DNA of 64,000 nucleotides, from contig NC_086097.1 of NCBI RefSeq assembly GCF_963921235.1, positions 75,394,001 to 75,458,000 on the forward strand, written 5' to 3'. The notes beneath the pieces were generated by a model. That model was not told the origin of the DNA and searched no databases. It saw only the letters and a list, made by a program, of their open reading frames with translations. Both the position numbers and the translations under genes were made by a program. Of this stretch, positions 3,615-62,800 are shown one piece after another (positions within the stretch are counted from its first letter, which is position 1; each line of letters opens with the position of its first letter). This DNA is from Mobula hypostoma. Taxonomy: Eukaryota.

Positions 3615-3830
3615 CTTGCCTCAACATCTTGACCAATATTTATCCTTCAGCCTATATCACAAAAACACATTGTTTGATTGTTAGCACATTGATGTTCTGG
3701 GAGCTTGTTGCACATAGATTGGAGATAACTACAGCGACCACACTTCAAAGTATTTTGTTCACTATAAAGTGCTCTGGAATATCCAGAATGGGGTATGTAC
3801 TGTGCTATAAAAATGCAACTCCTTTCTTTA
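3615..3830 (+). mobile_element. ancient Deu-type (SacSINE1-like) SINE, 3' half with L2-like tail
   Basis: Motifs gaccaatatttatccttca, cacattgatgttctgggagcttg, cacacttcaaag and gctataaaaatgcaactcctttcttt. Confidence 0.5.
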
Positions 3831-4369
3831 TGAGCCATTTGGATCTAGGCAATTCTGAAAATGCAATTTCATTAACAAAATAAAAAAAAGCAAGCAATCA
3901 AGAAGCGGCTGGAATAATAATTATTTATCTCTTCTAATGGCTGAAGAGCCACTTAAGCATATCTAAATGTTGGAAAGTTCATTAATACTGCTGTGAAGTC
4001 TGTAATATTTAAACCAAATGACCTACTGTCAAGTTTTGCATTGTTAATCTCTGTTATAGAAAAACAGAAGTAGATTTCTGATGTAGGAGAACGGCATCTC
4101 ATTGTGCAAAGAAGGAAGCAAGCTTGGCAGAAGGTCAAAGCAATGTCAGGCTAGAGGAGGTTTGAAAGAAATTATTTACTGAAAGGCACAAACTAATTAA
4201 GGGAATATTTCTAGCAGAGTAGAGGAACATTTATATGAAGATGATGGAAATAATGAGTAAGATGCATACAAAAATTGTTCTAATGAAGAATATATCACTA
4301 AGGCTTTGGAAATGTTCGGGGATCTCATTTTGGGGGAGGGAAATACAAAATGGAAAAAATGGCACTAAA

Positions 4370-6678: not shown

Positions 6679-7102
6679 CATGCCAAGTATATTAAGGCAT
6701 GCTAGGAAAGATGGGCACTGCAAGATTAAATTTCCAAAGTGCAATGGCTTCAGATATCTAAAAGGGACATGGCAAACCAGTTTTAGAAACAATGGTCTGA
6801 TTCCTCATGAATTGATATAAAAGGTCTCATGTCTATTACACACAAACTGCAAGGGAACCTGCAAAGCATCATCTAACCCAATTTCAAACCTTAGGTTCTG
6901 GCATCAAAAATACATATTGTACTTGTATAGAAGATGCTTATTTTATATGGAATATATGGAATCAGGATGATGCCATTTCAGAGTTCTGATGAATTGTTTC
7001 TGTCTTCATAGATACTGTCCAGATTGTTGTTTTTCCAATGACTTTTGTTTTTATTTCAGATTTTCAAACAGGAACTTACTGTTTCATTTAATTATGTGTG
7101 TT

Positions 7103-16187: not shown

Positions 16188-18578
16188 GACTTTGGCATCA
16201 CATCAACTCCAATAATTTGGCAAAGAGCAATGGGCCAAGTGCTCCAAGATATCCCAGGAATACAATGTCACCTTGATGACATCATTGTGACTGGCAAGAA
16301 TGATGAAGAGCACCACTAGGACTGTGGTGAAGTGTTTACAGGCTGAGTGAATATGGTCTGCGTGCAAAGGGAGAAAAATGTGAGTTTTCAAGAATGAAAT
16401 CTCATATTGTGGGCATGTCATTGACAAGCAGGGCTTACAAACGTCACAAGAGAAGACTGAAGCACTGCTATAGGCACCCAAGCCAGAAAATGTGTCACAA
16501 CTCAGGTCAACCTTGGGCCTTGTAAACTACTACCACAGGTTTCTCCCAAATGTTGCTACATGCTGCACCCATTGAATGCACTGTTGCAAATAGGAACAAA
16601 GTGGGAATGGTCAGAAAGATGTGCACAGATTGACTGAGGAGTTCTTAAGCTATTATGGAGAATAAAGAAGTTCCACAACTACTTCAATGGATAAAAGTTT
16701 GCACTAGTGACAGATCACCAGCCTCTTGTGTCCATTTTCAATCCCAGTGAGGTCTGATGCCTGGTTGCAACATTGGGGACTTTTTCATGGAGCCCACTCT
16801 TATGCCATAGAGCTCAAGGATACCATATAACACAGTAACACTAACGGCTTGTTATGTTTTCCACTGTTGACAACTAAAGAAGAGAAGTCTTCGTTTTGTG
16901 ACCCAGCAGAAGCGTTCCATACAACACTGGTGCACCGGTTGCCTGTAACAGATTTGGAAATACAAAGAGAAACAAGGAATGACCCGACATTGTCGAAAGT
17001 CTATGACATCACCATGCAAGAATAGCCAGCTCAGGATAATCCTATGTTTCCAGCACTCTCAGTGAGACGAGACCAGCTGTCTGTATGTCAAAGACGCTGA
17101 TATGTGGGTCTTGTGTTGTGGTTCTCTCTAAAATGCGCACCAGAGTGTTAGAAAGTCTGCATGAAGCACACTCGGGTACAGTAAAGATGAAGAGTCTCAA
17201 CTGGAGCTTTGTGTGGTGGCTGGAATAGATAGACAGATTGAAGACTTGACCAAAGTCTGTTCAGGATGGCAAAAAGTTCAAAATGCACCCCCATGGGCGC
17301 CGTTACACCCATGAGAGTGGTCGTCTTCACCATGGCAAAGAGAACATATTGACTTTGCTGGGATATTCATGGGCTCCATGTTTCTGATTGCTGTGGATGC
17401 TCATTTGAAGTAGCTTGAAGTCATACCAATGAAGTCAACCATCTCTGAAAAGACTGTTACCACTCTGAGGACTATCTTCACCAGAAATGGCTTACTTGAA
17501 CAAATAGTAAGTGAAAATGGACCAAAATACACATCAGAAGAATTCAGATTATTCAAGAAGAAAAATGGCATCAGACATTTCAAGTCTGCTCCTCACTACC
17601 CAGCAACAAATGGGTTAGCTGAAATGTTTATCCAAACCTTCAAGAAGTCCATTAAAGCAATGGACAATGAGGACATTTCTCTACAGCACAAGGTGGACAA
17701 CTTCCTTTTTGTGTATTGGAACCCTGCTCATGCAACAACAAATCAAACACCTGCAATGCTGTTCGTGAGCAGAAATCTGAGATCTCACATAGACCTCCTG
17801 AAACCAGAACTACAGAAGGAAGTGCAGAATAAACCGTTCAGCCAGTTGCCAAGTGAATCAGCAAGGAGCTTCAAGATTGGGCAGGAAGTCCTAGTGCATG
17901 ATTACCGAGAAGGCAAGTGGACACCCGGTAGGGTAGCTACAGGAACTGGACCACTGATGTACACAGTGGATGTTGGAGATCAGATATGGAGACGTCATGT
18001 GAACCAGATACCTGATGCTCAGCCGAAGAACACGCCTGAGTCAAATGCAGCTAACAGGTGGGCACTTTACAGCCACCGGACTTACCTCTCCGTGATGATC
18101 ATGTCACTAACAACAACGTGAGACTGGCAATCGAGAACATTGTCTTTGACAAGACACCTGTCAAACTTGATGTCATTCCACAGGTCTACAGGCACTATCC
18201 TGAAAGAAACAGAGCAGTACCTGAAAGAATGAATCTTTATTATAGTGAGGTTAGTTACGGACCATTATTGTGAAAGCATGTTTATTTGAAAATGGTTTGT
18301 GAAAGGGAAATTGAATGTTTTGTACATATTCAGTTTTATGTTACATTAATCTAAATGGGGAGGAAGTGTAATGTATAGATCTATTTCTTTTAGAGCAATG
18401 ACTCCCCTTAGCACTACACATGGACTGATAACTTACCTATGCACATTGATCTGTCATCTACACATGCATATAGCTCTGCTCTCCCTCTCTCTCTCATTAC
18501 AATATGAGTACACAAGTTATAGCCATCTCCTGCATGCATGTTTTTATTTAATTGATATGTAGCTGCATAGACACAACA
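16188..18578 (+). mobile_element. Ty3/Gypsy LTR retrotransposon remnant (RT, RNase H, integrase, PPT, 3' LTR)
   Basis: RT FGITSTPIIWQRAM..CHLDDIIVTG. Integrase IVSENGPKYTSEEF..SAPHYPATNGLAE (17429-18121). PPT aaatggggaggaag at 18353-18366. Domain order is RT-RH-IN, with many stops and frameshifts. Confidence 0.92.
18367..18578 (+). repeat. 3' LTR of the Gypsy element
   Basis: Starts TGTAATG immediately after the PPT and ends CACAACA. Confidence 0.75.
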
Positions 18579-22194: not shown

Positions 22195-24266
22195 AGTTGC
22201 CATTACAGAGCCTTGGCTATCATGAGGGCAGGAATGGCTGTTGAATGTTCTAGTATTTACGTACCCCACTGAAGAAAAAAAAGGATGTAGGGTGAAGGAA
22301 CAGTACTTGACAAAAGATACAGAACATCTAGTCAAGAGGAAGAAAGAAGCATACTTTTGGTTTAAGAAGGAAGGATCAGAACTTCTTGGAGGGTTATTAA
22401 GTAACCAGGAAGGAAGGGACTTAGGAGTGCTGGAAGAAGGCGTGAGAAGGTCTTGGTGAGTCAGATTAAGGAAAACTCCAAGGCATTCTATATATATATA
22501 CATATGTGTGTATGAAGAACAGAAGAACAGGAAGATGACTCCGATCAGGAATTTTAAAAAAAGAAACACGGAGGAGGCTGGGGAGGTCCTTAATGAATAT
22601 TTTGCTTCAGTATTCATCAGTGAGAGGGATCTTGGCAAATGCAAGGATAGCATAAAACAGGCTGAAATAGTGGAACATGTCAACGTTAAGAAAGAGGATG
22701 TGCAGGAACTTGTGAAAAACATTCAGGTGGATAAATCCCTGAGGCCAGATGGAAGATGCTCCTGGTTACTATCTGAAGAGACAGAAGATATTGCTGTGCC
22801 TTTGGTGATGATCTTTGCATCTTCCCTGGACACAGAAGTTGTAACAGAGGATTGGAGGATGGCAAATGTTATTCCTTTGTTCAAGAAGGCTAATAGGGAT
22901 AATCTGAGGAAGTATAGACCAGAGAGTGTTATGTCAGTGGTGGGCAAACCTGTGGGGAGTATTCTTAGAGGCAGGATTTTTGAGCATTTGGAGAAGCACA
23001 GGGTGATTAAGGATAGTCAGCCTGGCTTTGTGAGGGGTGTGTTGTGCCTCACAAGCCTATTCGAATTCTTCAGGAAAGTGAAAAAACAAATTGATGAAGG
23101 TAGAGAAGAGGATCTGGTCTATCTGGATTTCAGTAAGGCATTTGACAAATTTCCCCATGGTAGGTTCATTCAGAAAGTCAGAAGGAATGGAATCATGGGA
23201 AACTTGCCTGCATAAATTCAGAGTTGGTTTGCCCACAGTTCTGCGTAGAGGACATATTCTGCTTGGAGGTCAGTGACCAGGGCCGAACCGCAGAGATCCA
23301 TTCTGGGATCACCGCTCCTTGTGATTTTTATAAATGACTTAGATGAGGAAGTGGAAGGATAAGTTAATAATTTTGCAGATGACACTGCGGTTGGTGGTGT
23401 TGTGGATAGTGCAGAAGATTGGCATTGTTTACAACAGGATATTGATAGGATGCAGAGTTGAGCTGAGAAGTGTTAGATAGAGTTCCTTCTGGAAAAGTGT
23501 GAAGTGATACACCTTGGAAAGTCAAATTTGAAGGCAGAGTACAGGGTTAATGTCGGGATTCTTAGCAGTGTGGAGGAACAGAGGGATCTTGGGGTTCACA
23601 TCTATAGATCCCTCAAAGTTGCCATGTAAATTGATAGAGTGGTTAATAAGGTGTAGGGTGTGTTGGCCCTCATTAGTTGGGAGATTGAGTGCAGCAGCCA
23701 CAAGGTAACATTGCTGTTCTATAAAGCTCTGGTTAAATCACACTTGGAGTAATGTGTTCAGTTCTGGTTGCCTCATTATGGGAAAGGTGTGGAAGGTTTT
23801 GAGAGAGTGCAAAGGAGATTTACCAGGATGCTGTCTGGATTAGAGAACATGTCTTATGAGGATAGTCTAAGTGAAATGAAAGAGGATGAGAGGCAACCTG
23901 ATAGAGGTGTACAAGATGATCAGTGACATAGATCAAATGGACAGTCAGCGACTTTTTCCCAGGTTGGAAATGGCTAATACAAGGGGCATAATTTTACAGT
24001 GATTGGAGGAAAGCGTAAGTGGGATATCACTGGTAGTTTTACATACAGAGAGTGGAAAGTGTTTAAAATGCACTGCTGGTGTTGGTGGTAGAGGCAGATA
24101 CATTAGGGACATTTAAGAGACTCTTAGGTAGGCACATGGATGAAAGAAAATGGAGGGATAATTGGAAGGGATGGATTAGATTCAACTTGGCATAGGTTAA
24201 GAGGTTGGCACGACATTGTCGGCCGTAGTGCACTGGAATGTGATGTACTGTCTATGTTCTATGTTA
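22195..24266 (+). mobile_element. CR1 LINE ORF2 pseudogene and 3' UTR
   Basis: ORF 22508-23215 (LNEYFASVF, DWRMANVIPLFKK, YLDFSKAFDK) and FADD near 23372. Tail ctatgttctatg. Confidence 0.95.
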
Positions 24267-25693: not shown

Positions 25694-28600
25694 CAAGATG
25701 GCACCTGCAACACTCATTTGGTCAACATCTTCTTGATAGATCATGAAACCATATATTTCACTTATTTATTGTTTTTTACATTTGGTTTCCATCCTGAATG
25801 TGATTCTGGAACTGTTGGAGCCTGTGATTTGCAGTTTGGAGATCGTTTGGGTGTTTCACTGCTCTGTGGTCTCTGAGAGGATTCTGGGAGGCAGAGGCAG
25901 CATGCAGGAACCTTGTGGTGAGAAGACAGCGAGATGGGGTGCAAGGTCGACTCCATTCAACTGATTAAAGCTTCCATTGTTCGCTGATGAAAGCAACGAG
26001 AGAGATTGATACACATGCTGCCTGCTTTTTTATCGCTGGTGAGATCACTCTGCTACAAAGATGGAGAGTGTTGCCCAGGTACTCTGCATTTTGGATCTAG
26101 ATTTTGACTGGGGACTTCTTTTTTAGTCTTATGGTTTTCTTGTATTCTGGGTTTTTCACCCGATCTTTCTCATTTTTGGTGTGGGGGGGAGGGGGATTTG
26201 GGGGTCAATGTGCCTGTTCCATTTTTGTTCATTTTTTTGTGTGGCAAGGAGGAATTTGAGTGATGATCATTGTACTGCTATTCTTTTCTTTCTTGCTTTT
26301 GTAGCTATCTGGAGACAAAGCATTTCAGGGTAATATACTTTGATATTGTCCTGGGTATGACTCTAAACTGCAACCGGTGATGAGGCTCTGATTGGAGACT
26401 TTCAGTGCTTTGGGGAAAGTGGAATTACCCCTTAGTCATTTATTGCTCCCAGGACCGCTCTGACCCGGAACTGTAGCACCTGCAAGGGTTCCTGCTCAGG
26501 TTACGTTGAAGGCCAATGGCAGATCGAGCAGGTTCAGTAACTGAACTTATGACGGAGAAGGCGGATGAGCTAGGACCTCAAATGTCAACGGCTATAGTAC
26601 AGACAGATGAACATTTGGGAAGAGAAATGGCGATTTCTTTAGTTCACCCAATGGTAAGCAATAGCAAACCACCGTTGCTAGATACTAGGTTTCCTAGAAT
26701 CTATTTGCTAAGAAAACCATGGTCAAACTCACAAAATGTATCGCACAACAACAGCGTCAAGAGGATCTTCAAGACAATTCTGAATTCACTCAGTAGGATT
26801 GATTCGGGTCAGCAGGGGATCCCTGACCATCATCAAGCTACAGCTCATAAAATTCAAATAACACAAAAGCAAATTATTGCCACTTGGAATGTAAGAACCC
26901 TATATCAAGCAGGAAGATTGGACAATGTGATAAATGAAATGGAAAGACTAAAGATTAACATCATGGGAATTAGTGAAGTTCATTGGATAGGTGCGGGAAC
27001 ATGTCAGAATAGAAATAAAACACTAATTTATTATTGTGGAACATCCCATACTAATGGAGTAGGAATTCTTATGGATGAAAACATGGCAAAAAGTGTTTTA
27101 GGACGTTGGGCAATATCAGAAAGAGTGCTCCTTGTTAGATTCGGAGGACAACCATTTGATTTAGGCATTATACAGGTATATGCACTAACAACAGATGGAA
27201 CAAATGGGATATAGATAAATTCTATGAAGAGCTTTAACAAGCAAAGAATGGTTGCAAATCTCAAGATATTGTTATTGTCATGGGAGATCTAGATGCTAAA
27301 GTAGGACAAGTAGGAAAATTTGGACTGGGGAAAGAAATGAAAGAGGTGAGAAATGGGTAGAATGATGCAAGATAAATAATCAGGTCATTATGAATACCTA
27401 CTTTAAAAGCCATCCAAGATGCTTGTGGACCTGGAAAAGCCCAGGTGATAACACTAGAAATCAAATTGACTTTATTACTATAAACCAAAGATTTAGAAAC
27501 TCAGTGACTCAATGCAAAACATATCCAGGCAGACTGTAATCGTGACCATAAACCAGTAGTATGTAATGTAAAAGTAAAACTTAAAAAACTAACGAAACAA
27601 AAACCTGAACAATCCCTTGACTACTTACAATTAATTAAAGAAGAAAACTTAAGACAAAAATTTACAATTGAAGTAAGAACTAGATTTCAAAGTCTAGAAA
27701 TAGAATCTGTTGAAGATGATAGCAATCATGTAGAAGTGAAATTTAACTCTCTAAAGGATGCCTTGGTAGAATCAGCGAAGTCAGTGATTCCTAAAAAAGA
27801 AAAAAAGAAAGAATAAATGGATGACAGATGAAGTCAAAAATCTAATGGAAGAAAGGAGACGGAAGAAAGCAAATCCTATAGAATACAAGTCCTCAGATAA
27901 AAAAGTTATCTTATGTCAAAAGCCTATGTCAAAAGCCGAAGAAGAATGGTTAAACCAGGAATGTGAGCAAATAGAAAGAATCTCTAACACTGATCCAAAA
28001 AGGTTACATCAACAAATCTAGAATATCACTGGTAAAAAACTTTTCTGTTCTTCAGGTGGATGTTTGAAAGCAAAGGACGGTACCATTATCATGGAAAAAG
28101 ATGAGATTATGAACAGATGGACTGAGTATATTCAGGAATTGTTTGAAGACGATCGAGGTGAAAAACCAGAAATTAGGAAAAACGTTGAAGGTCCAAGTAT
28201 TTTAAAATCTGAAGTTTGTAATGCAGTAAATAAAATGAAGAAAGGAAAAGCAACAGGTCCTGATGAATTAGTAATAGAACAAATTATCGCCCTTGAAGAT
28301 TATGGAATTGAAAAACTTACTGATTTAATCAATGACATTTATGAGACTGGAATAATACCAGAAGAGGTGAAAAAATCAGTATTTATCACTCTTCCTAAGA
28401 AACCTGGAGCAATAGAATGTGAATTACATAGGACCATAAGTTTAATGAGTCATATCACCAAGATACTTCTAAGAATTTTGATGACAAGAGCTATAAGTAA
28501 GATACAAGCTGAAATAGGTAAAGAACAATGTGGTTTTGTGAAAGGCAAAGGTACAAGAAACGCAATATTGATGTTAAGGATACTAATAGAATGAGCTATT

Positions 28601-29692
28601 CAAGAGCAAAAAGATTTGTTTCTTTGTTTTATTGACTACACAAAAGCATTCGATAAAGTGAAGCACAATAAGTTATTTGAAATAATACAGAAAACTCTAG
28701 ATCTAGATTCAAAAGATCTCCGCCTAATCAGAAATCTGTACTGCCGCTGTAAGAATAGATGGAGAAGTGAGTCAGTTTACGAAAATCAAGAGAGGCATTA
28801 GTCAAGGGTGTGTTTTCTCCCCTGATGTATTTAATGTGTACAGTGAAACAATATTACAAAAAATAAGAGACATCTTGGGAATCAAAGTTGGTGGTGAAAA
28901 CATCAATAATTTCAGATATGCAGATGACACTGTGTTAATTGCAAGTACGGAGAAAGAACTACAAAACTTAATTGATATAATTGTTGAAGAAAGTGCAGAA
29001 ATGGGTCTATCTATCAATCGCAAAAAGACAGAATGTATGGTGATATCTAAAAAGAAGGAGAATCTGAATAAACGGGGAAGACATAAAACAAGTACAGAAC
29101 TTTTGCTACTTAGGAAGCTGGGTGACATCAGAAGAAGACTAGGGATGGCAAAAGATAACTTTACAAGAATGAAGAGTATACTGACCAATACTAAACTAGG
29201 CATGACAACCTGCCTCAGAGTACTGAAATGTTGCGTTTATCCAGTTATGTTATATGACTCAGAATACTGGACAATATCTAGTAACATGAGGAAACAAATT
29301 GTAGCAGCAGAGATGTGGTTTTTGAAGAGGATGTAAAGAATATCATGGATGAAATGAATATCTAACGAGGATGTCATGAACAGAGCAAACTTAAAAAGAG
29401 AAATAATATATGAGATCATGACAAGGCAACATAACTTCATTGGACATGTGATTAGGAAAGAGGAGTTAGAATGCACGGTAATTATGGGAAAGATTGGAGG
29501 GAAGAAAGCAAGAGGAAGACAAAGACAAATGATGATGGAGACAGCAGCCAGAGAACTGGAAATGAATACCAATGAACTGATCCACTTGTCCAGAAACAGG
29601 AGTGTGTGGGCCATGGCAATCAAAGCTCAAACTGGACATGGCACCTGATGATGATGATACTTTGATAATAAATGAACCTTTGAACCTTTGAA
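25694..29692 (+). mobile_element. ~800-bp non-autonomous retroelement (copy 2), tail split by the RTE
   Basis: 25694-26345 aligns with 14118-14895. Its tail resumes at 29657 (atactttgataataaatgaacctttgaacc). Confidence 0.85.
26346..29656 (+). mobile_element. near full-length RTE-clade LINE (APE + RT), inactivated
   Basis: APE IATWNVRTL..GISEVHW. RT KATGPDE, HRTISLMSH, FIDYTKAFDKV, QGCVFSP and RYADD. (TGA)n tail. 11-bp TSD atactttgata at 26335-26345 and 29657-29667. Confidence 0.95.
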
Positions 29693-35325: not shown

Positions 35326-35424
35326 TAATAAAATGGGTTAGCTGATGTAACTTCAATTTATTGGTCTCACCTGGAACATTTTACTCACCTTAAGTGGGAA
35401 GGTGGTGGTTTTGATCTACAGAAG

Positions 35425-35523
35425 TAACACACACAAAATGCTGGAGAAACTCTGCAGACCATGCAGCATCTATGGAAAAGAGTACAGTGAACATTTTGGG
35501 CCTAGACCCTTCAGCAGGACTGA
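35425..35523 (-). mobile_element. Penelope-derived pLTR fragment
   Basis: acacacaaaatgctggagaaactc...cagtgaacattttgggcctagacccttcagcaggactg. Confidence 0.8.
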
Positions 35524-45837: not shown

Positions 45838-46059
45838 GGTTTAAGCCATATTTTTTCTATAAAGATATTCCTACAGGGAAAATAGAATTCCATACAAAAA
45901 AAATCCCAATTGTAAAAGAGAAAGAACATTGAGATGCTAAAGATGCATTAGTTTTGAAAATTGAAAGCAGCATAATTTAGTGTGATCTATGTTTTCACTT
46001 AACTGGAGATGATGTGATAAGCTTCAGCATTGCTAGTGACATAAAATTAACTGTTGTAG

Positions 46060-46730
46060 ATCCAATGGTCAGTGATCCATTATCATATACCCAATAGCCA
46101 ATATCCATCGCCATGTACCCAATGGTCAGTATCCATCATCATGTATCCAAAGGCCAATGTTCCATCATCATGTACCCAATGGCCAATGTTCATCGTCATG
46201 TACCCAATGGCCAATGATCCATCATCATGTAGCCAATGGTCAATATCCATCATCATGTACCCAATAGCCAATATCCATCATGATGTACCCAATAGCCAAT
46301 GTCCATCATCATGTGCCCAATGGCCAATGTTCATCGTCATGTATCCAATAGCTAATATTCGTCATCATGTAGCCAATGGTCAATATCCATCATCATGTAC
46401 CCAAAGGTGAATGGCCATCATTATATACCTAATGGTGAATGTCCATCATCATGTACCCAATGGCCAATGATCCATTATCATGTACCCAATTGGTAATAGC
46501 CATCATCATGGCCCCAAAGCCAATATCCATCATCATGTACCCAAAGGTGAATGGCCATCATTATGTACCTAATGGTGAATGTCCATCATCATGTACCCAA
46601 TGGCCAATGATCCATTATCATGTACCCAATTGGCAATAGCCATCATCATGGCCCCGCAGCCAATATCTATCATCATGTGCCCAAAGGCAAATGTCCATCA
46701 TCATGGACCCAAAGGCCAATGTCCATCAGT
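46060..46730. repeat. minisatellite, 28-29-bp unit, ~23 copies
   Basis: Consensus ccatcatcatgtacccaatggccaatgt. Confidence 0.95.
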
Positions 46731-48784
46731 TATATATTGAAGGATTATTAGCAATTCATTGTAAACATAAAACTAAATGTCCATTTGATATACACCCAAT
46801 AATCAGTGGCAATCCTGTTTAGAGTAGAAGACTAGTTATAATCACTTATGGGCCTATTGCTCAATGCTGTCTGCTGTAAACCCTAAATAAAAATGATAGG
46901 TGTACATGATCAGATGAATGGCCTAGACCTGTTTTGAGTTGCCACTAATTCTATTTTTAGGATAAAATTGGGATATTATTGGGATATTTATTTATGTATT
47001 TATTTATCCTAATGATTATTAGGATGAAATGACCTTCCACGCTGTCTTGGTCTAATGGAAATCGTTCATTCAAAATTCAGAGCATAGCGGTAGATATGAT
47101 AGGAACATATAAACACTGACATGCTTTTTACTATCTATAAGAATTTTGGGTAGCAAAAACTATGTCAACCAATCATACTAACTGGATAAGACTTAGGCAT
47201 GACAGGCTTTTTTTTGTTATTATTATGTTGTCCCTTCATCCCAGTTCCAGGAATCCAATATTTGAGTGGGTTCTCTCAAACATTGAACTTCCCATATCAA
47301 AGTTAATTAAAATATAATATAAAAATAACTTTTAACCACAACTGTCTGCCTTTTTGTTGCATATCTCATTCTTACTCTCCAGAAGGATATCTAATAATCT
47401 CTTGAATGAATTTAGGCGACTGCTTCAAGAAAATTTGCTATTGTCGGTGTAGCAAGCTCAACACATTAGGGTGTATATTCCAATTGGTTATTCCCAATTA
47501 ACAGGCACATAAAGTGAGCATAATTGATTGGATAAATGGGTAGAGATCAGTTATGCCAGGTTTCAACCCAATTAGTGTGTATCCACTTTTTCAAATGAGT
47601 TTCACACTGATACCAGAGGCACTTGACAAACTGTAGTATAATTATAGTAAAACTAAGCTTTGATTGTATAATTTAAATGCCAACCTACTTCTCTGGTGTT
47701 TATTCCAGACATATACCTGCCTCTAGAAGGTAGGTGTGCAGAGATTTTATAGTTTATCACTTGTGAAAGCAATGCCATTAGTAAGACTTGAGGCCTACTT
47801 GTCAATCTTTTTACATTGTTCCTTTTCTGCTTGTATTCGGTTTATCAGGAGGTTGAGCGCTTCCCACCAGCTTTTCCAATGGCAGTCGATGCTTCTTGCT
47901 TTGGAGGAGTGCAGCAGGATGCTCATGCATCAGACAGACACGGGATGCCTGCAGATTCCCTCTCACTCGCATTTGAGGGAAGAGGCACACCCAGTTGTTC
48001 GTAGCCAGGTTCACAGCCTCTGAATTGACAGGAAACATCAAATGCAGTGCAATGCTGTCCAAGGACGCCTGCAGCTAAAATGTGCCACAGATCTGACTGC
48101 TTCGTTGTCAGCAATGTTCAACTGTCCTCGAAGTAAGTGCTCTTCCATGTTGGCATACCACCATGTGTACTGAGGGGATTGCTCTGCGGACTGGCAAGTG
48201 GAATCACCTTCCTCAACGCACCTCTTTCAACACCATCTTGCTACTTTGCAGGCAGTAAAACCACAATGCAACGAATAAAGGAAAATGAATGGCTTACTAT
48301 TTACCCAGACTTCCAATATTACAATGCCCCTTACCATTATTGAAGTTATGCAACCCCAAATATTTAACCTTTAGATAGGCAATTATCACCCTAATAAATC
48401 TGGGGGTAAAAACGAATGGAATCAGTGAAAAACCTGATTCAGAAGATGCTCAGCTTTGAGCATCCACATTGGTTATGGGCACCTTCAACTCTATTGGCAC
48501 AGATAATGGTGGATATAGATAGTCCATGTAAAACTGGAAATTGAATCTTCTCCAGTGTGTTTGTGATCATCAGAACCAGGCGATGAAATGCATGGCAATA
48601 TATTTCTTGACGAACAAACATAAAAGAGGTACCACCTGTCACTCCTGGTGCGATTATCTGGCATAACACCCCAAAGTAAAACAAAAGTTGTTCCCCTCCA
48701 ATGTCATCACCCACTTCAAAACATCACCCACTTGAAAGAAAAACTAGTGTAATTAATGTTGCAGAAATATCACAAAATCGGCAA

Positions 48785-49035: not shown

Positions 49036-49984
49036 TCATCCTTAAATCGTTACATCAGTACAGCTGATAGTGAGAGGGAGGATGAGAGGCACAGTTTGTT
49101 CAGAGCGTTTCTCAACACTACCTTTCAATTAACCACATCTTTGGCCTGTGCAAATCATTTTGTGACCTTTTTTATATGACGATTATTTATTGTTACTCAG
49201 ACTTAAACAGTAACTTGGGAATAATAACGTTAAAAACCTTTATAAAGGCTACCTAACAATGTAATTTCATATGTGACCACACATCACATTAAAACTATAC
49301 AATACTCTTTCCTTTCTCTCCTCCAGCAATCTCCAAAGACTTTGCTAAATAAGGGCTAAGAGCCATCTATAGAACACTCCTGTGAAATCAGACCAAGCAC
49401 ACTAGCCAAATTTATCCAGTTTGAAGCCCTGACTGTATTCCTTATACATGGAACAATTAGTCATGCAGAGCATGAGCTACATTATCATCAGTCTTTTCAC
49501 TCACAATTCAAACACTGGATTAGAGTGACAGAGGAGTATGTAGTACGTGGTGAGATGGAGCAGTATGTCATGCTGTGGAGTGATGGAGATGGAGTGCCAT
49601 CATGTGTTGCCACAGAGATTTGATCTCCTCCTCGGCTGATTTATAAATCTCTGTTAATCAGCCGTAGGTGAGGTGCAGATTCCTCCCGTAAGTGCTGAGA
49701 TAGTTGCAAAGAGAATTCATCTTTGATCAATGTATGCTTGCTTGAAGTTGGCTCTGGACCGCACTGGAGACTGAAGTTAGCTTGTAATTATCCAAGGAAA
49801 CTAGAGAGAAAAAAGTCTTTTCAAATCTCATCATCGGTTCTAAAAAGAGAACATTATGACTTTGGTATGAGTGTTAAAGATTAAATATTCCTTGAGGCAA
49901 TTTAACTGGATATTATTGCTGTTAAGTCTAACTGATATCACACCACTGGAATTAACTATCAGATCATCTCTTACATCAAAGAAT

Positions 49985-50720
49985 GAAATTTCTCTTCCAC
50001 CACCGCCGATGCAGCCCTCACCCACATCTCCTCCATTTCCCACACTTCTGCTCTCATCTCATCCTTCTATCGTCATAACAGGGATAGGGTTCCCCTTATC
50101 CTTCCATAACACCCCATGAACCTCTGTATCCAGCACAACATTCTCCACAAGTTCCGCCATCTCCAATGAGATCCCACCACAAAGCATATATTTTCCTCCC
50201 ACCCCTGTCAGCTTTCCATATGGATCATTCTCCACATATCTCCCGTGTCAACTCATCCTTCCCACCCATTGATTTCCTTCTCGGCACTAATCCCTGCAAG
50301 CTCGACAAGTGCTACACCTACCCCTACAGCTCCTCCTTCACCATCGTTCAGGACCCAAACCATCCTTCCAGGTAAGGCAGCACCTCACCTGCGAGCCTGT
50401 CAGAGTCATCTATTACATCCAGTGCAGCCTCCTCTACATCGGTGAGATCCAGCGTAGATTGGGGAACAGCTATGTTGAGCACCTTCACTCTGTCCACTGT
50501 GAAAGGCAGGATCTCCCAGAGGCTCACGTTTCGATTTGACCTGGTCTCACCTATAACCTGCCACTTTGTACTCCTTTCCTTCAGCCACATTCTTATTCTG
50601 ACGCTGCCTCCTTCCTTTCCAGCCCCAATGTAGGGTCATGGCCCAAAACATTGGCTGTTTATTCCCCTCCATTGATGCTGCCTAACCCGCTGAGTTCCCC
50701 CGGCATTTTGCGGGTGTTGA
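49985..50720 (+). mobile_element. Penelope-like element fragment with GIY-YIG endonuclease and pLTR
   Basis: SFQVRQHLTCEPVRVIYYIQC..LYIGEIQRRLG..EH (50309-50539), followed by a pLTR with a degenerate hammerhead at 50620-50657. Confidence 0.85.
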
Positions 50721-52100: not shown

Positions 52101-53690
52101 ATGGTTCACTGGTTCCTTTTAATATCAGAGAATGTATACAGTGTATACCCTGAGATTCTTACTCTTCACAGGCGTCCACGAAACAGAAAAAAGAAACACC
52201 AAAGAATGAATGACAGAAAAATGTTAGAGCCTCAAAGCCCCCCTCCCCTGCCACGCACAAGCAGCAGCAAAGCATCGACCTCCGCCCACCCCACTTGTTC
52301 CAGTAGCAAGTATCAGCCACCCACCGTGCAAGCAATAGCAAAGCCCCTAACGAGAGCAAGTTCTAGTCCATCAAAACCACTGTTCATCCCAACAGCTTGA
52401 CATCCCACAGGCTCTCTCTCTCTCTCTCTCCCTAATGAGGGAGAGGGAAGTATCACTCCTGCCACGAGGAGAGGGAGGCCAACAGCTCACTGTTTCGATG
52501 CTACAGTCTGCTGTGTCACTTTATTTCGAGCAGTGAACTCTCTCTCACCATTGAGAGAGAGAGAGGAAGAGAACCATCGCTCAAGTGCAGAGGCCTCCGA
52601 CAAACCCACCCACCGTCTCGACGTTCCAATCTCAGGCGATGCTTCAGTCAGTGACACCGTCAAGGAATCAGGTCATCCACAGGGCTGCACAGGGCCACGC
52701 ACCAAAGGCACACGTCCTCCAGGCTGCTCCTGGAGATGTTGAAAACACTAGGCTGCTCAGGAAGCCTCTAGAGCGGAACCCACTGCTGTTTGAGGGCAGC
52801 TGTAGGTCAAAGGCTCCAACAAGACCCCAGCCACACTGAAAAGGTAAGAAGGGATATTAAGTAGTCATAGTCATAGTCATACTTTATTGATCCCAGAGGG
52901 AAATTGGTTTTCAGTTACAGTTGCACCATAAATAATAAATAGTAATAAAACCATAAATAGTTAAATAGTAATATGTAAGTTATGCCAGGAAATAAGTCCA
53001 GGACCAGCCTATTGGCTCAGGGTGTCTGACCCTCCAAGGGAGGAGTTGTAAAGTTTGATGGCCACAGGCAGGAATGACTTCCTATGACGCTCCGTGTTAC
53101 ATCTCAGTGGAATGAGTCTCCGGCTGAATGTACTCCTGTGCCCACCCAGTACATTATGTAGTGAATGGGAGACATTGTCCAAGATGGCATGCAACTTAGA
53201 CAGCAACCTCTTTTCAGACACCACCATGAGAGAGTCCAGTTCCATCCCCACAACATCACTGGCCTTATGAATGAGTTTGTTGATTCTGTTGGTGTCTGCC
53301 ACCCTCAGCCTGCTGCCCCAGCACACAACAGCAAACATGATAGCACTGGCCACCACAGACTCGTAGAACATCCTCAGCATCATCCGTCAGATGTTAAAGG
53401 ACCTCAGTCTCCTCAGGAAATAGAGACGGCTCTGACCCTTCTTGTAGACAGCCTCTGTGTTCTTTGACCAGTCCAGTTTATTGTCAATTCGTATCCCCAG
53501 GTATTTGTAATCCTCCACCATGTCCACACTGACCCCCTGGATGGAAACAGGAGTAACCGGTACCTTAGCTCTCCTCAGGTCTACCAGCAGCTCCTTAGTC
53601 TTTTTCACATTAAGCTGCAGATAATTCAAAGAGAAGAATTTAAACTGTTTCGTAGATGAACTCAATGAAGTCGCCCTCTAGTGCCATCAT
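52101..53690 (-). mobile_element. non-autonomous retroelement (5' end gatggcactagagggcgac), split by a Rex insertion
   Basis: Reverse-strand tail at 52101-52170 with a G/T-rich 3' region like the 14112 family. The sequence resumes at ~53628. Confidence 0.6.
52861..53627 (-). mobile_element. Rex1/Babar LINE 3' fragment
   Basis: LNVKKTKELLVD..YKYLG..KKGQSRLYFLRRL and FYESVVASAIMFAVVCWG. (TATGAC)n tail. Confidence 0.9.
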
Positions 53691-54414: not shown

Positions 54415-54489
54415 TTAGTACAGAGCCAGCAACAAAATCAAGGTCTCCTGTTGTTCCTGGCCCCACCGGGCATGCATCAGTTCCAAGCA

Positions 54490-54980
54490 GACTCATCTTG
54501 GAGCAGCAACACCTCATATTCCATCTGGGAAGCCTCCAACCAGATGGCATGAACATCAATTTCTCTAATTTCTCCCCTCCCCCCTCTCTTTTTCCATTCC
54601 ACATTCCAGTTCCCTTCTTACCCCTTCTCTTCTCTTCACTGCCCGTCAACTCCCTATGATGCCCCTCCTCCTTCCCTTTCTCTTATGGTCCACTCTTCTC
54701 TCCTATCAGGTTCTTCCTCTGTCAGCCCTTTAGCTTTTCCACTTATCACCTCCCAGCTTCTCACTTCATTCCCCCACCCCCCCCAGCTTCTCCTCACCTG
54801 TTTCAACTATCACTTGCCAGCTCGTGCTCCTTCCGCATGCCCCCCCACTTTCCTATTCTGACTTCCTTCCCCTTCCGTTCCAGTCATGAAGATGGTCTTG
54901 GCCTGAAACGTTCACTGTTTATTCCTCTCCACAGATGCTGCCTGACTTGCTAAGTTCCTCCAGCACTTTTTGTTTATTGT
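54490..54980 (+). mobile_element. Penelope-like 3' fragment and pLTR
   Basis: LEQQHLIFHLGSLQPDGMNINF, then a pyrimidine-rich tract and a hammerhead-like motif at 54881-54917. Confidence 0.85.
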
Positions 54981-55532
54981 TCAGAATGCATCCCGCCCCA
55001 ATGAGGGGATCGAATCCAGAATCCTTTAATACCGTATCCAATTGAATGCCCGTAGGCATTTAATGAAGTTCTATAATCTCCTTGTAAAGATTTGTAGATT
55101 TTAGAATCCTCCATCATTTCTCTGCCACATCTCCATTCTCCCTTGAGGCTGCGAAACCCTCAGGTTTGCAGACAACAAGCATATCCTGGCTGGAACAAGG
55201 CCGTATTCAATCTCTAACTCTACACCTCGAGATATTTTTGTGATTATTCGCACAGGAACCATGAAGAAATCATAAATATTAATATTTCAATGTACAGATA
55301 AAGCTCCACAAAATTGATAAGATACACATGTATAAAATATTTTTGCATTTTTCAGTTTATAAAAAGCTACGCTTCAAGTTTGGCATAGCATGTCTTGCCA
55401 TATTGAGATTCCTTTCTCATTTTGTTTTATATTCACCAGCTTTATAGGAAAGAATGCAGTGGCATATTGAGGTCAATGCTTAGGGGAGGGAGATTGTAGC
55501 AGATACCACCTGACAGAACTGAATTACATGTT

Positions 55533-55720
55533 AACTCACACAAAATGCTGGAGGATCTCAGCAGGTCAGGCAGCATCTATGACAATGAATAAACAGTTGA
55601 CGTTTCGGGAAGACCGTCGACTGTTTATTCATTTTCATAGATGCTGCCTGACCTGCTGAGTTCCTCCAGCATTTTGTATGTGTTGCTCTGGATTTCCAGC
55701 ATCTGCAGAATCTCTTGTGC
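55533..55720. mobile_element. Penelope-derived mini fold-back element
   Basis: ~70-bp near-perfect inverted arms at 55533-55602 and 55615-55684. Confidence 0.85.
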
Positions 55721-58458
55721 TTATGAAGTACACACTTCCTCTAACATACTTGCTTTCCAGATAGATTTGGCTATTATACAGATTCCAGCACATTTTCACT
55801 GATGAAGCAACACCCACCCTGTGGAATCCTAAACTGCACTTACATACAAGAAATGCCTTAGAGCATTTACAGCTGCACAATGCATTGTGTAAGATCTCTT
55901 TCAGGGCTGATTGGTACCAATTCATTTCCTAATGCCTCTGTGAAATGCCTCAGGATGTTTTCCTTCTGTCTAAAAGGCCAGATCTGAATACAAGTTGTTG
56001 CTGTTGATCTTGGATCCATTTAGATCTTAAGAGAATGGCATTTGGGAAATACAGTCATCCAAATTGTGTCCTCATTATTAGAGGGCTAAAACTGGGCTGT
56101 AGAAAGTCAGCTAACAAATACAGAACGAAAATGTAACAAATAAATGTATGATCTGTAGCAAAAGGCAGTTCTATTGTGTTTTGTACAGTTAACCTCAGTC
56201 AATGGCACATCAGGCTTTGAGCTGTACAGTGGCACCAATTAAATGTCGAATACATTCTGACATTGAAGACCTTGTTTTACTTTCAGGCTGTCGGCTAGAT
56301 GTTTGTTGGATCAGGTGGGCCACTCAAATGAATAGACGGTCTTTAGCCAGAGCATATCCTGCATAGCACACCTGGTCTGTATTTGGAAAAGAAAGTCTCT
56401 CTTGTTTTGTTAGGGTGGAAGCCATGAAAAGCTAAAGCAGCTTAATTTATCCCAAAAGAATGTTAAGTTCAATAGGGAGGTTCATCACAGGTGACTCACT
56501 TGAAATTCAAGATTTTAAAGGTGATGTGCCAAGCTACAAAAAAAAGTCCTTATAACTTCTGCATTTTATAAAACATTTCTTCAAGGGTATAGTGTGTGGA
56601 GAAAAAAAAGAGGTTTGCTTTTAAAGAAACAGGAGATGAAATCAGAGTGTTAGATAATGTTCCCAGCAGATAACTACTACATAAGCAATAAAATGCCTTG
56701 AATTGAGAAAATGGTTTTGCAAATATATTTAACAGTGCAATGTGTGTGCTGTTTATAACATCTAAAAACAGTCCACTTGGGGAAAAGGAAAAGATACTCG
56801 ATGAACAAAATTTATCCCAATCTTTGTAGGAATTTAGAGAAACGAGATCTTGTCTGTCATTTGATGCTATCTTGCAACAAGGTAGTCTCTGTGGAACAGT
56901 TTGATCACAGGATTCTCATTCACAAACAGACAGGTTAAACACTTAAATGCTAGCAAATCCTGCACAGCCCTGTGGGAAATTTCAGTTTAATCCCAAACTT
57001 ATAGGAGGACAATCAAAGCCCAAAGCCAGGGTAACAAATCTGATCCTCTGTTACAATCTGTCCTCTCCTGGGACACCAGAGTCACTCCCTATACAAGACC
57101 GCGATGGATAAATACCTAAATGATGAGATACACTGGGACTGCTGGAGAAGCATCTAGCTTTGGCTATTCACTTTCAATTTCACATTACAGCGTGAGAGGC
57201 AATACTTTCCCAGAATATAGCAGACAGTCCTGATTATTATAAGTTGAAGTGTGGCTTAAGGAATGATTAATGATGGTGCCAGAAGAAAACAAAGCTGAAT
57301 GAGAGTTATCTCCAATCCACCTGCTCACAGATGGGAATGAAAATGGCCCCAGCATGCCCTGATATTAAAACACCAAAAGGGAAGGTGTTAATGCTGTAGA
57401 TATGTATGAAAAAGATAACATGTCATGCATCTAAAGTCCTCTTACCGCAAATAAATCATTATCCCATAAATGGGGCTCAGTATGTGATTAGTATTATAAG
57501 CGCAGTGGACTTCACATACTCATTTTTTTTTAAATAATCAGACCCAAGCAAGTCCCTCTTGTATTGATGCTAACATTAATAGACAGGAATTGGGAGGGGG
57601 GGTGGTCTCTGACAAAAGAGATTGTTGAAGAGGCTTTGTGGCAGAGACTGTTCAGCAGCAGGGCAATGATGCCACCTTGTGTTGCTTTAAGGTATTACAT
57701 AGACATGTGGCTGAAAGGAAGGTTTCAATTTCAGGACCCAACCAAGCCCCCTGTTTCGAAGTTCCAAACCGTCACTTATTGTCTAAAAAATCAAAAGTTG
57801 CGAAGCACTGCACACTGTAGCATAACACAATTGGCAGTAAATAGTGTAACCAGCAGGTTTTTGATTCATTGTTCTATTTCTTAAGATTCTTCACAGCAAT
57901 TAATACAGTAATATGAATTTGGATAATAGATAAACAAGGTGGTAATTTAAGTAGTTGTCAGTAATTTCTCTGTATTCTATTGTGAAGCAGAAAGGAATGT
58001 ATAAATAGTAAAATAAAGGGTCAAATCTAATGGGAACAAAGAGGGATGAGAAGCCTAATTATTAACATCCGTCTGAACAGGGCCTGAAGGATGGGATTAT
58101 AAGGATTAATCTGTGTCTGTCTGTCAAAAAAAGTCTCAGTCATGACTAATTGTATTGTCACAAAACTTCTTCTAATAATCAAACTCCATTAGCTAAACCC
58201 TGGAAAATGTGTTACCTCTGGCAATTTTAATGAAAACCACGCAGAAGACCCATTTCCACACGAAGATCTGGAAATATATCATGCAAGCATGTCCATTAAT
58301 TTGAGGCTCAAAAGAAGACTGTAATCTTCAAATGTTTACTTTTAAATTGAAAAATAGAAATTAATTTCCTTTTTGTATATGTATATGTCCATGGAGGTGG
58401 TGATGGTGATTATAGAGTAAAATTCATTGATTGCTCCAGAACATTCATTTTATTAATA

Positions 58459-59286
58459 CAGTAGATTCCGGTTAATCGGGACGTCCGCTTATTTAGGACA
58501 GCTCCTAAAGTACAAAATCAAATTAAGTATATAACCAGGATTCCCTTCATTTATTTGGGACAATATGCCATTTAATTGGGGCAGCTGACTGTTACCGAAC
58601 ATTTTCTATCTGGTGTCAGTGGCATGTGCCTCACGCGGCCTTTAGACACCACATCGTGTTTAGAGTGAACAGTTTTTAAATAGCGTCACTTGGGTGCCTG
58701 TGGTCAAAAAACAGAGATTTTTGTCACCGATAGGTGAGAAGTAATAAGCAGTAAGACAATTCAGAACTGTTTTGCTCTCTGTAGTTTCAAACATTCAGGC
58801 TTGGAGATGTCGGAAACAGCCGGGTCGTGAAAATGAAATGATTTCGCTATTTCTACAATTTAGGAACTATGAAGAATTTGAAAGTATCTACAATCATTTT
58901 GAATGTTACAATTAAAATGAAGATTTGGAGAATGTAATTGCTGAAAGCAGTGCTTAAAGGCACTCCACTATCTGCACTAGGTGTCTGTGCTAACTTTGTT
59001 CATTTACAGTCAATCAAAAGAGCACATCAGCATACACTGAATGAATTCCTCTATCGTTAACTACTAGGAACTAATAAACAGTTTTACTGTATTTTAGTAG
59101 TTTTGGTAGTGTTCTAATTTATTCTATATTTCATTTAAATACATAATTTGTTACTCAGTTAAACCGTAGTTTGTCTTTAATAAAGCGTTTTAAGTATTTC
59201 CATGAAATTTCGGCTAATTGAGGCAGCCACTTAATTGGGCCAAAAGGTACTGGTCCTGATATGCCCCAATTAACAAGAGTGCACTG
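58459..59286 (+). mobile_element. pogo/Tigger-type non-autonomous DNA transposon
   Basis: TIRs cagtagattccggttaatcggg and cccaattaacaagagtgcactg, TA flanks, subterminal ttaattgggg repeats, and an IQNCFA remnant near 58760. Confidence 0.8.
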
Positions 59287-59674
59287 TATATTTTGAGAAG
59301 AGATGCACACCCTTAACATGCACAGACCAGTTTAATGGAACACACCCAACACCTGACCCTTCAGTTAAAGTAGACATTTGACTCATCTGAATTAGGATTA
59401 AATCATTTCTTATTTTTTGTTGAGCAGGATAGCAACATTCCACAACAGACTACATATGTATCCCAGGAACCTGATCTATCAACAAGTTCATCAGCTATTA
59501 CATTTTAAACCTTGGGAAACTAATCAGTAACCACACAGAGATGTAGCACAAGAAACTGCGTTAATATCTTGAGGTGATTATAGTAGTATTAATACTGGTT
59601 ATTGCTGGTTGCACTAACCACTCTTTGTGAAAGTGGCATCAACAGCAAGGTCTTCATCTGTGATGTTTTCAGAA

Positions 59675-59712
59675 TAGTCCTGACGAAGGGTCTCGGCCTG
59701 AAACGTCGACTG
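59675..59712 (+). ncRNA. minimal hammerhead ribozyme motif (Penelope type)
   Basis: agtc-CTGACGA-agggtctcggcct-GAAA-cgtc-gact: intact core boxes, stem I agtc/gact, stem II hairpin, palindromic ACGT stem III and a GUC cleavage triplet. Confidence 0.75.
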
Positions 59713-59810
59713 CGCCTCTTCCTATAGATGCTGCTTGGCCTGCTGCGTTCACCAGCAACTTTGATGTATGTTGCTTGAATTTCCAGCATCTGCAGAATTC
59801 CTGTTGTTTG
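59679..59810 (+). mobile_element. solo Penelope pLTR insertion
   Basis: Flanked by cagaatagt at 59670-59678 and 59811-59819. Homologous to 8918-9050. Confidence 0.85.
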
Positions 59811-62800
59811 CAGAATAGTACTGTTAGGTTTTCCTGTGTACTGCTGCAGTTTCAAGTAGTGCTCCTTACAGACAATCACATTATTTAATAGGTGTTATTT
59901 GCTGCTGCTCACTCTTAAAAGGACCTACCAAAATGTAAGCAGCACTTTCCCAGCTACAGGGAGTGTTGCAACTGATGATAGAAGGATGAAATGTTGCAGG
60001 AGTCAACAGGGTTTAGACAAGCTATTAAGAATAATGCATGCAGAGGGGATGTTTTAGTCTGCAATTGGAACTACACAGACCCTTCCAGGAAGGAATTGGC
60101 CTGAATGAGTGCAGTTCTCTGAATGGGGAAGTCTGCCATGCAAGAAATTGTACATTTGCACTCCTGTGGACTGATGGACAAGTAGATGAAGTCATTCCTT
60201 CCAAAGTAAGTAGCAGGGTCACATCCCGACTGCAGCAGTGAGATAGGGCAGAGATCAGCATCGGCAGTGTAGGATTACCCACGGACAAAGCTGTCCAGCT
60301 ACACATGACAGGCTGTATTTGTAGGTGTGTTCAATGATCTTAATGAGGGCAGAGTACAATTTGAGGGTTGGCCCTTTAAACTAGATGGGATTAGCAAAAC
60401 CTGGACTTTCGGAGAGAAAGTAAGAATTGTCATGACTTGGATGCAGTGGTGTTGAACAAATGCAAACAAATGTACGTTATTTGGGAATGCCTACATCGGA
60501 AAAATGGTGCAAGAGCAAAAATTCCTTCTAAAAGTCCACAGCCGTATTTATCAATCAGGTGCTCAGACATTAAGAAATGTATGAAAGTAGCTTACAGGTA
60601 AAGCCAGTTTTCCCCAGCCCAGTTGGAGTTTACGAGAAAAATTTAGGCTTTCGTACCCAAAATCCAATTTAGTCTACAGCTGTTCTGATACCAATGCTTC
60701 CTTTCACCAGAAGCTTCTGATCTCAGTTTTCGATCATTTCACCAAACATCTCTTTCTCTCTACTTTAATGCCATTTGACAATGAATGCATAGTAGGAAAA
60801 TGAAAATGAAATTGAACCTTGTTGGGATTACTTTCTGTTGGAAAATAATCTACGTTTAGAGCGGTTCGGAATATTCCTTCAGAAGCACAGCCTGATTTCA
60901 GTGTCAAAGGGACATCCCAGATAAGCAGTTACTGTACAACATTAGGAATATTGGAAAAGTATTATGTTATTTTCCCATTATAAAAAATATCAATATCCAA
61001 TTTAATAATAAGAATTAAGTTAGCTTCAACTGCAGAGAAAAACATCCAAATTTGTACCACTCCCTGCATGTTGAATGTTTCTTATGCTCATCCCTATAAG
61101 TTCCAACTCAAATTTTTGGATTCCTGAGCCTAGAGAAATAGTTTCTTTCTTCTGTCAGGAAAACTTTGATTTGACCAGGGCTTTACTATAACCTTAAGCA
61201 CTTAGATATCAGGGCCAGCGTCCCATTAGTTGTTCTGATAATTTTTCGTATTTGTCTCAATGATCTGTATGGGTGGACACCATTTCTCATTGGTCCTGTG
61301 ATATCTCTAGATTTAAAATGTTCCATTCATTTTAGATCCCAAGTGTATGATTATTTTCTAGACTTTGCCATGAAGCGCTTTGTTGATGTGACCATTCCCA
61401 GTGTGTGCACATCATGCACAGAGAGCAACAAGTCTGTGCAGTTAAACAAAGCAAATGAGAGTGAGTAAGAATGTTTTCTAAGGAAAAGGTGGAATAAGGC
61501 CAGGACACATAGTGACAATAGAAAAGCTTGCCCTTGTACAGCACCATTCACATTCCTTTTGGGACATCTCAAAACACCTGAGAACTAAATAAGAGTTTTT
61601 GAAGTATAATCCCTGTTGCATGGACATGAGGGTGGGTGGGTGTATGGAGTGTAAGCAACTCGTTTCTACAGACAGCAATATGATAATGAGCTCATAACCT
61701 GGCTTCGGAAAGCTGAGCGAGGGGCAGGAAGGAAGTAATGCAGCTGCATCCATCTGGGAGAAGACACCTCTTAACCCCTCTCTTGCCCCGGAACAACACG
61801 ACAGATTTTGGAGCTCAGGTTTCTAGAATGGGAATCCGGAGGGAGAACAGGGGAAACCTGTCCCAAGACTTGAGATCATGAACAAAATAGGCATAAGCTA
61901 GCAGATGAAAGAATACTATGTGCCATATACATTGCCCAGAGATATGCATTAAAAATAATGTGACATTTGTAGGAGTGTGGATCATGGCCAACAGCATTGA
62001 TTGTGCTTACCACTGCTTGGGTTTCTTTATGCACCATAATGTGCATTCTCTTGTATGAGCTGGATTGCTGAATTAAGTTTTAACATTATGTGCAAGGAAT
62101 TGTATGACTTCCAATGTAAATGAAGCATCAATGGAAGGCACTTTAATGAAACTCAATATCATAAAATCCTCATCATGTGGAATGAAAAATCAATGTAGAT
62201 TTTCAATGGAGAACAAGCATTAGGGGATTGCTAAACCAAACTTAATTCATTAGACACATGCAAAGACTAATACCTCCCCTCTCAATTGGAAATTTTACAC
62301 CATCCACCCGCAACCCCCAATCTCAATAACCAAACCAGAAGCCTCTGATAACAATTTCCTCTTCTTTTTACTCAGACATTGGCTGTTGAGAATATTACTA
62401 CCATTTATACTTCCATTAGAGTCACTTTTTCTTAATATCCTATCATCCAACACTTTAGTCATGCACATTTAACCTCCTTGTCAGTTAATTAGTCACCCTC
62501 CATACTAGCCAAGACCTTCATTCTTTCCTTGCCTTTCCCTCCAAGGCTCTACAATTACTTAAACACTTGGTACATCTTTGACCTCCTCCATTTCTAAGGA
62601 AAAGTCATCAAATTGAAATATAAGTCTGGTAGCCTGGGATTGGTCAGATGTTAATGTTTGTAAAACCTAAATCCCAGTCACAACCCTTCTTGAACACCCC
62701 CCAAATCCATGTTTAAAATATCTGGGACACACAGTGGACAATTGGTGGTCCTTTAGGCAAGTGGTCAATTTTGCTATTTGTTGGTCTACCTCTAGTTGAC

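Follow-up and report, generated by a model that had tools for sequence, protein, structure and literature searches.

We analysed a 64,000-nt stretch of the genome of the ray Mobula hypostoma (NCBI RefSeq assembly GCF_963921235.1, contig NC_086097.1, positions 75,394,001 to 75,458,000 of the forward strand; hereafter the window, in whose coordinates all positions are given) and found in it a recent 132-bp insertion that carries a hammerhead ribozyme motif, is flanked by a 9-bp target-site duplication (TSD) and is likely, judging from its relatives, the end module (hammerhead plus tail) of a very high-copy Penelope-like element (PLE). This PLE origin is the point missed in the initial annotation of the locus. 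By far the most probable explanation is that a PLE endonuclease and reverse transcriptase (RT) made the insertion by copying the 3'-terminal 132 nt of an element RNA that had not been cleaved; the hammerhead would be a passenger, with no activity predicted at this site. The parts of the insertion are as follows (ORF, open reading frame).

59670–59678 (+): left TSD, 9 bp, identical to 59811–59819; organisms B and C have it as a single copy at their empty sites.
59811–59819 (+): right TSD, 9 bp, the same 9-mer as 59670–59678.
59679–59810 (+): 132-bp insertion, likely a 5'-truncated end module (hammerhead and tail) of a PLE, missing in B and C and with 73–81% identity to sister copies that are associated with remnants of a PLE ORF.
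59675–59679 (+): helix I 5' strand, (T)AGTC, of which 59675/59676–59678 is microhomology common to target and element; the AG is a tentatively predicted 3' splice acceptor of the element.
59680–59687 (+): core C3–A9 (CUGACGA) and unpaired A59687 before helix II, fitting the CUGANGAH consensus of Fig. S3 in PMC4209133.
59688–59699 (+): helix II, GGGU/GCCU, 4 bp, with a CUCG loop and a closing G10.1·U11.1 wobble; pair probabilities 0.87–0.97 in the isolated motif.
59700–59707 (+): core G12–A15.1 and loop-less palindromic helix III (ACGU, 59703–59706), with predicted cleavage after C59707 by established hammerhead numbering.
59708–59712 (+): helix I 3' strand, GACUG, from folding and the copy alignment.
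59763–59810 (+): likely PLE 'tail' and family 3' end, the putative RT initiation end; the tail is on one arm only of the sister insertion at 8313–9053, and family contigs end at 59810/59811.

The initial annotation had described an intact minimal hammerhead of a dimer-dependent kind in a young, TSD-flanked insertion; the motif is a minimal type-I hammerhead of that kind, and its setting was confirmed as well. Core motifs CTGACGA (59680–59686), GAAA (59700–59703) and GTC (59705–59707), helix I strands AGTC (59676–59679) and GACT (59708–59711), helix II and the ACGT palindrome (59703–59706) all lie where it had placed them, in an insert of 132 bp between two exact copies of the 9-mer CAGAATAGT (59670–59678 and 59811–59819). 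The motif has the CUGANGA core, GAAA and UH cleavage site of PLE minimal type-I hammerheads, as well as their unpaired base between positions 9 and 10.1 (A59687) and a palindromic 15.2–16.2 without loop 3. All core bases are present, but 'intact' is slightly too strong, since helix II is closed by G59688·U59699, off the G–C consensus. That 10.1–11.1 pair is formed, is G–C in four of the seven aligned copies of the family and G·U in the focal copy only; G·U at this position does occur among published PLE hammerheads (Latimeria 1, Xenopus 1 and cichlid rows in Fig. S3 of PMC4209133). A descriptor of the type-I minimal hammerhead matched the window once, at this site, and yielded four matches over 100 simulated order-2 Markov windows of 64 kb. 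Rfam gave no match at gathering threshold in the window and no hammerhead family at E ≤ 10 in 59500–60000; one UnaL2 match over the tail was weak (E 4.8) and was taken as chance. Folding energies relative to shuffles were unremarkable (z of 0.24, −0.68 and −0.37 for three stretches).

For age and insertion history, contigs from four of 24 sequencing runs were compared with 58700–60800, namely X1 (organism A, from which the window itself may come), X5 (organism B), X9 (organism C) and X19 (guessed to be RNA). In the organism B contig (X5 record 22), 59234–59669 is joined to 59811–60800 at adjacent record positions 3690/3689, and the organism C contig (X9 record 29) has the same direct 59669–59811 join at record positions 489/488. 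Exactly 141 bp, that is, the 132 bp and one 9-mer, are missing in both, with no base between the joined ends. These joins show that the site is empty in B and C and thereby establish the TSD and the young age of the copy. Run X1 contained both insert junctions with no differences (records 7 and 8), and no empty allele of organism A was present among the joints listed. Flanking sequence differs at 30 of 1426 bases from B and at 43 of 960 from C (record 29 only), which gives the tree ((A,B),C) and dates the insertion after the A/B split. The young age that had been proposed from the letters alone is thus borne out by empty sites in two related species, and by retained CpGs, of which the insert has six (observed/expected 0.71 versus 0.24 across the window).

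Six other insertions of the family lie in the window (dual-orientation structures are given without strand).

8313–9053: head-to-head inverted pair of PLE ends, with a GIY-YIG C-terminus remnant at 8590–8822 (−), a 10-bp TSD (8304–8313 / 9055–9064) and a tail that only one arm carries.
49957–50709 (+): decayed hammerhead end, preceded by a remnant, also decayed, of RT thumb, linker and GIY-YIG.
54486–54982 (+): ORF C-terminus, pyrimidine-rich 3' region and a broken hammerhead at 54882.
35422–35521 (−): mini-copy that starts at the same AGTC boundary, core broken.
55537–55724: inverted mini-structure with its junction inside the hammerhead.
3342–3470: copy to which an inverted tail is joined at TCC, just past the AG position.

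These sister copies connect the family to PLE coding sequence. Frame 8587–8742 (−) gave four protein matches, all annotated from stingrays. Stingray proteins P0001 and P0003 contain RT motifs, a CX2-5CxxC linker (residues 317–324 and 241–249, respectively, with a decayed match at window 50289–50363) and GIY-YIG, and in tblastn against the window they identified 49957–50524, 8590–8822 and 54486–54572 (E 4e-33 to 7e-7), each followed downstream, in the same orientation, by an end that bears a hammerhead. An exhaustive search with the 50351–50527 piece found 114 relatives, including the 816-aa P0066, where RVT_1 (E 7.5e-6) is followed by GIY-YIG (E 7e-4); a word-index protein search with the GIY-YIG piece found no match. 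At the level of the family, window remnants together with P0001, P0003 and P0066 therefore present the RT and C-terminal GIY-YIG in a single ORF that mark endonuclease-bearing (EN+) PLEs, along with an inverted 5'-truncated partner and one-sided tail (8313–9053) and a short TSD (9 bp, proven by the empty sites). The hammerhead is placed as in a PLE terminal repeat, lying downstream of PLE ORF remnants in three sister copies. The linker motif and the host group point to Neptune or Nematis as the putative affiliation. Separately, the stingray gene models P0001, P0002 and P0004 (named as DIPK1C, VKORC1L1 and ABHD14A isoforms) start with or contain a PLE GIY-YIG C-terminus, which suggests that PLE ends serve as alternative first exons of host genes, or else mis-annotation.

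The family is abundant: summed contig depth in X1 was about 5 million over the insert versus 5–6 on unique flanks, figures that express depth and not copy number. The RNA-guessed run X19 covers repeats only, with none on the unique flanks, and weighs neither way. Among the matches listed, 209 and 192 contigs in X1 leave the alignment behind 59810/59811; so many divergences at one point indicate a fixed 3' end of the family. At the other end, again among the matches listed, 431 contigs in X1, 464 in X5 and 352 in X9 leave before 59676, where the consensus of the loose ends is pyrimidine-rich with low agreement (0.38–0.40; the loose-end figures are drawn from 24 of 2,750 rows). Pattern scans for further copies returned no matches in metagenome contigs, viral contigs or prokaryote genomes.

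The initial annotation had proposed that target microhomology completes the fold, given that the 5' strand of helix I overlaps the TSD. This did not hold up, as AGTC is element-encoded in sister copies and helix I is kept across seven copies. AGTC precedes the core in four of the six other hammerhead-spanning copies (8919, 8400, 54882 and 35521), the remaining two having AGCC and AATC, and three of those four extend upstream into the element body (as do, in all, the copies at 8919, 8400, 54882 and 50621). Over the seven copies with letters on both sides, 88.9% of the cells of helices I and II are paired (82.9% for helix I alone), and the helix I column 31/66 is A–U in all seven. Three helix pairs show two-sided change, a number reached by two of 500 shuffles in what is a lenient control. 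Because the sister copies have an AGTC of their own, the stretch common to helix I and the TSD amounts to 3–4 bases of ordinary microhomology at the 5' junction, of the kind described for PLEs in PMC3846280. Moreover, contigs of X5, X9 and X19 align from 59675 with different upstream sequence, which suggests a subfamily with its own T at 59675 and hence four shared bases; the focal copy would presumably belong to it.

The insertion would then have proceeded as follows. Staggered nicks 9 bp apart would prime reverse transcription at the fixed 3' (tail) end of the family, 59810/59811; after a halt in synthesis at the helix I foot, the end of the cDNA would anneal to the target through the 3–4 common bases (AGT or TAGT). 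The insert starts at 59676–59679, 29–32 nt upstream of the predicted cut, and from this we infer that the RNA template was uncleaved. Target sequence left of the TSD (59661–59669) matches the last nine bases of the element (59802–59810) at seven of nine positions; guide-like targeting on this basis was set aside, as the match was picked after the fact and is not seen at 8313–9053.

Self-cleavage at this locus is unlikely, given the folding models, the G·U at 10.1–11.1 and the lack of an intact partner copy within the 64 kb. In the isolated monomer, core GACG is predicted to pair with CGUC with a probability of 0.98–0.99 (open-core fold 0.0006), which in a solo RNA would block helix III. An active double hammerhead was computed at −11.5 kcal/mol, whereas two misfolded monomers came to −22.0 and the best dimer to −30.3, and in 245-nt and 601-nt flanking contexts helices I and II had predicted probabilities of 0.05 or less. 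Inspection of the copies and the descriptor found the core broken in all six other hammerhead-spanning copies of the window. The suggestion that the RNA could cleave or pair with other copies is accordingly weak, given a core predicted to be buried, a dimer about 10 kcal/mol less stable and six of six other window copies with a broken core. Published data on such motifs point the same way: solo minimal hammerhead ribozymes (min-HHRs) showed no cleavage and multimers low cleavage (Cervera & De la Peña 2014, PMC4209133), the hammerhead of an anole PLE, which insertion does not require, cleaves only when protein is present (Frangieh et al., PMC11167929) and one of nine Xenopus dimers cleaved (Li et al., bioRxiv 10.64898/2026.07.22.740005). 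For cleavage, a second copy would have to be present, probably with the PLE protein acting as a chaperone, a situation expected in tandem master elements and not at a solo locus.

Other explanations have to be weighed against insertion by the PLE machinery. The 132-nt unit might be a non-autonomous mini-element in its own right, complete and SINE- or retrozyme-like, with its origin in the PLE pseudo-LTR (LTR, long terminal repeat), transcribed alone, perhaps as a tandem or circle, and mobilised in trans by the PLE enzyme. The 5' boundary does lie close to the foot of helix I in three of the seven hammerhead-spanning window copies (focal, 35521 and 3373), and many contigs diverge at 59675/59676. 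However, the other four copies extend into the PLE body, before 59676 the loose ends give a consensus of pyrimidine-rich element body, a retrozyme monomer defined by cleavage should begin at 59708 rather than at 59676–59679, and the locus is a solo unit with no tandem, so that we consider this origin improbable. It is very improbable that target bases complete a ribozyme at this locus that works within a host transcript and cuts in cis or paired with another copy. The core bases are there, very many family copies could in principle act as trans partners and the closing wobble has its published counterparts, yet AGTC is element-encoded, misfolding is predicted (helices I and II at 0.05 or below in flanking context), none of the six other window copies has an intact core and published solo min-HHRs do not cleave. 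Finally, there is almost no likelihood that the motif arose by chance, or that relatives suffered a deletion instead: ordinary folding z-scores and the lack of an Rfam match would fit chance, but four descriptor hits in 100 simulated windows and helices kept across the family would not, and a deletion would require the same precise loss twice, in B and in C.

Several observations nonetheless weigh against insertion of a PLE end by the element's own enzymes with an inactive hammerhead. The focal copy has no ORF, and its link to PLEs is the 73–81% identity to sister copies of other subfamilies. Pfam RT and GIY-YIG scores were below the curated cut-offs for all PLE homologues, and the three window peptides alone gave no Pfam match. 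Two of the three other mini-copies checked yielded no TSD, compared with the 10 bp at 8313–9053. One contig of the RNA-guessed run (X19, depth 39) steps from 59801 back by 131 nt to 59671, head-to-tail; this is compatible with a short unit that occurs in tandem or as a circle elsewhere in the family, and it speaks for the mini-element. Nearest-neighbour energies, moreover, leave out the tertiary core and Mg2+ and so understate the active fold.

Within the preferred explanation, in which the PLE enzymes copied an uncleaved RNA, the halt at the foot of helix I may have a cause of its own. A speculative proposal, to which we give a low probability, is that the 5' ends of this and many sister mini-insertions are set by a splice acceptor, the AG of helix I AGUC being the 3' splice site of a pseudo-LTR intron. 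In the four copies that include element body (8919, 8400, 54882 and 50621), pyrimidines make up 17, 18, 19 and 17 of the 20 bases before this AG, and 23 of the 8,543 AGs in the window are preceded by at least 18 pyrimidines. A branch-like CTGAC motif lies 20–21 nt upstream of the AG in two of the four, and in the 8400 copy the ORF stop, 189 nt upstream, coincides with a GT donor, which would define a predicted 189-nt intron (8587–8399, −). In the annotation, isoforms P0001 and P0002 both depart from the PLE ORF at that codon, P0002 continuing into a VKOR domain; three of the seven window copies begin within a few bases of the AG; and an intron of Drosophila virilis Penelope also ends at the 5' end of helix I (PMC4209133). 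The proposal is weakened by the pyrimidine-rich character of the whole 3' region, by the non-independence of the copies and by the isoforms having been predicted in other species, and spliced reads were not observed in the run contigs examined. If it is right, reverse transcription would be brought to a stop at the ribozyme's foot, either by bound splicing factors or by splicing as such, and micro-insertions headed by a hammerhead would arise in large numbers, and splicing would toggle helix I between two forms; in the spliced variant, target AG would rebuild helix I, much as initially guessed. Should splice acceptor, foot of helix I and truncation point coincide genome-wide, intron retention, ribozyme and 5' truncation of PLEs would be united in one mechanism.

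No host gene or transcript across the insertion was found in these data. Pfam, run on 149 of the 282 stop-to-stop frames of at least 60 aa (those with starts at 30 kb or beyond), returned two matches, RLIP76, which was sub-threshold and without Atlas support and was rejected, and ALKBH8_N, which adjoins a LINE-like ORF; the ALKBH8_N domain is common in retroelements. No relative was found for two exon-like frames. Other repeats also lie in the window. About 370 bp left of the insert, 58700–59300 is another high-copy repeat (depth 30,000–95,000 in X1). Decayed LINE-type ORFs occur at 4231–6357 (−) and 26510–29336 (+), with RVT_1 and Exo_endo_phos matches, and, by eye and Pfam scan, at 22460–23215 (+) and 53009–53677 (−). 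An integrase-core remnant at 17414–18121 (+; rve, E 4e-5) is likely a decayed LTR retrotransposon, and 46055–46737 is a tandem minisatellite with a period of about 57 bp (self-BLAST offsets).

Compared with known systems, the ray motif resembles the PLE min-HHRs of PMC4209133 in its CUGANGAH core, 4–5-bp helix I, unpaired base before helix II and loop-less palindromic 15.2–16.2, and in occurring mostly as solo copies from truncated PLEs. It differs in a helix II of only 4 bp with G·U at 10.1–11.1; no cartilaginous fish is among the rows listed for Fig. S3 of that paper, and the abundance of the ray family appears to be far above the 4,000–9,000 motifs reported for coelacanth and Xenopus. Like EN+ PLEs of the Neptune/Nematis type (PMC8557442, PMC3846280 and PMC11167929), the family has RT then GIY-YIG with a CX2-5CxxC linker, TSDs of 8–10 bp, 5' junctions with microhomology and fixed 3' ends from internal RT initiation, and the head-to-head arms, one-sided tail and 10-bp TSD of 8313–9053 reproduce an architecture reported for PLEs (PMC8557442, PMC3846280); unlike them, the focal copy keeps 132 bp only, and the tail, judged from one sister copy, appears to be about 48 bp instead of 30–40 bp. 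Metazoan non-LTR retrozymes, which PMC7229834 and bioRxiv 10.64898/2026.07.22.740005 report in one chondrichthyan genome, are likewise PLE-derived, non-coding, dispersed monomers with a type-I hammerhead and a TSD of more than 4 bp. The insert differs from these in being a single unit between TSDs, with a minimal rather than canonical hammerhead and a start away from the cleavage site; neither tandem hammerhead units nor a unit bounded by the cleavage site was found. Among the papers listed, our literature search found none on the hammerhead of this ray family; the supplements of bioRxiv 10.64898/2026.07.22.740005, which name chondrichthyan families, may include it, and PMC6155905 uses 'shark' only as a simile.

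The kind of motif has been known since 2014 and the insert is an ordinary young insertion, so that the single locus, one among very many truncated Penelope ends, carries little weight by itself. It is nonetheless a clean and dated insertion, empty in two relatives, and usable as a lineage marker. Beyond this, it would record an uncleaved RNA as the template of insertion, in line with the dispensability of the hammerhead for insertion in vitro, and in this way touches on the wider question of why PLEs keep hammerheads.

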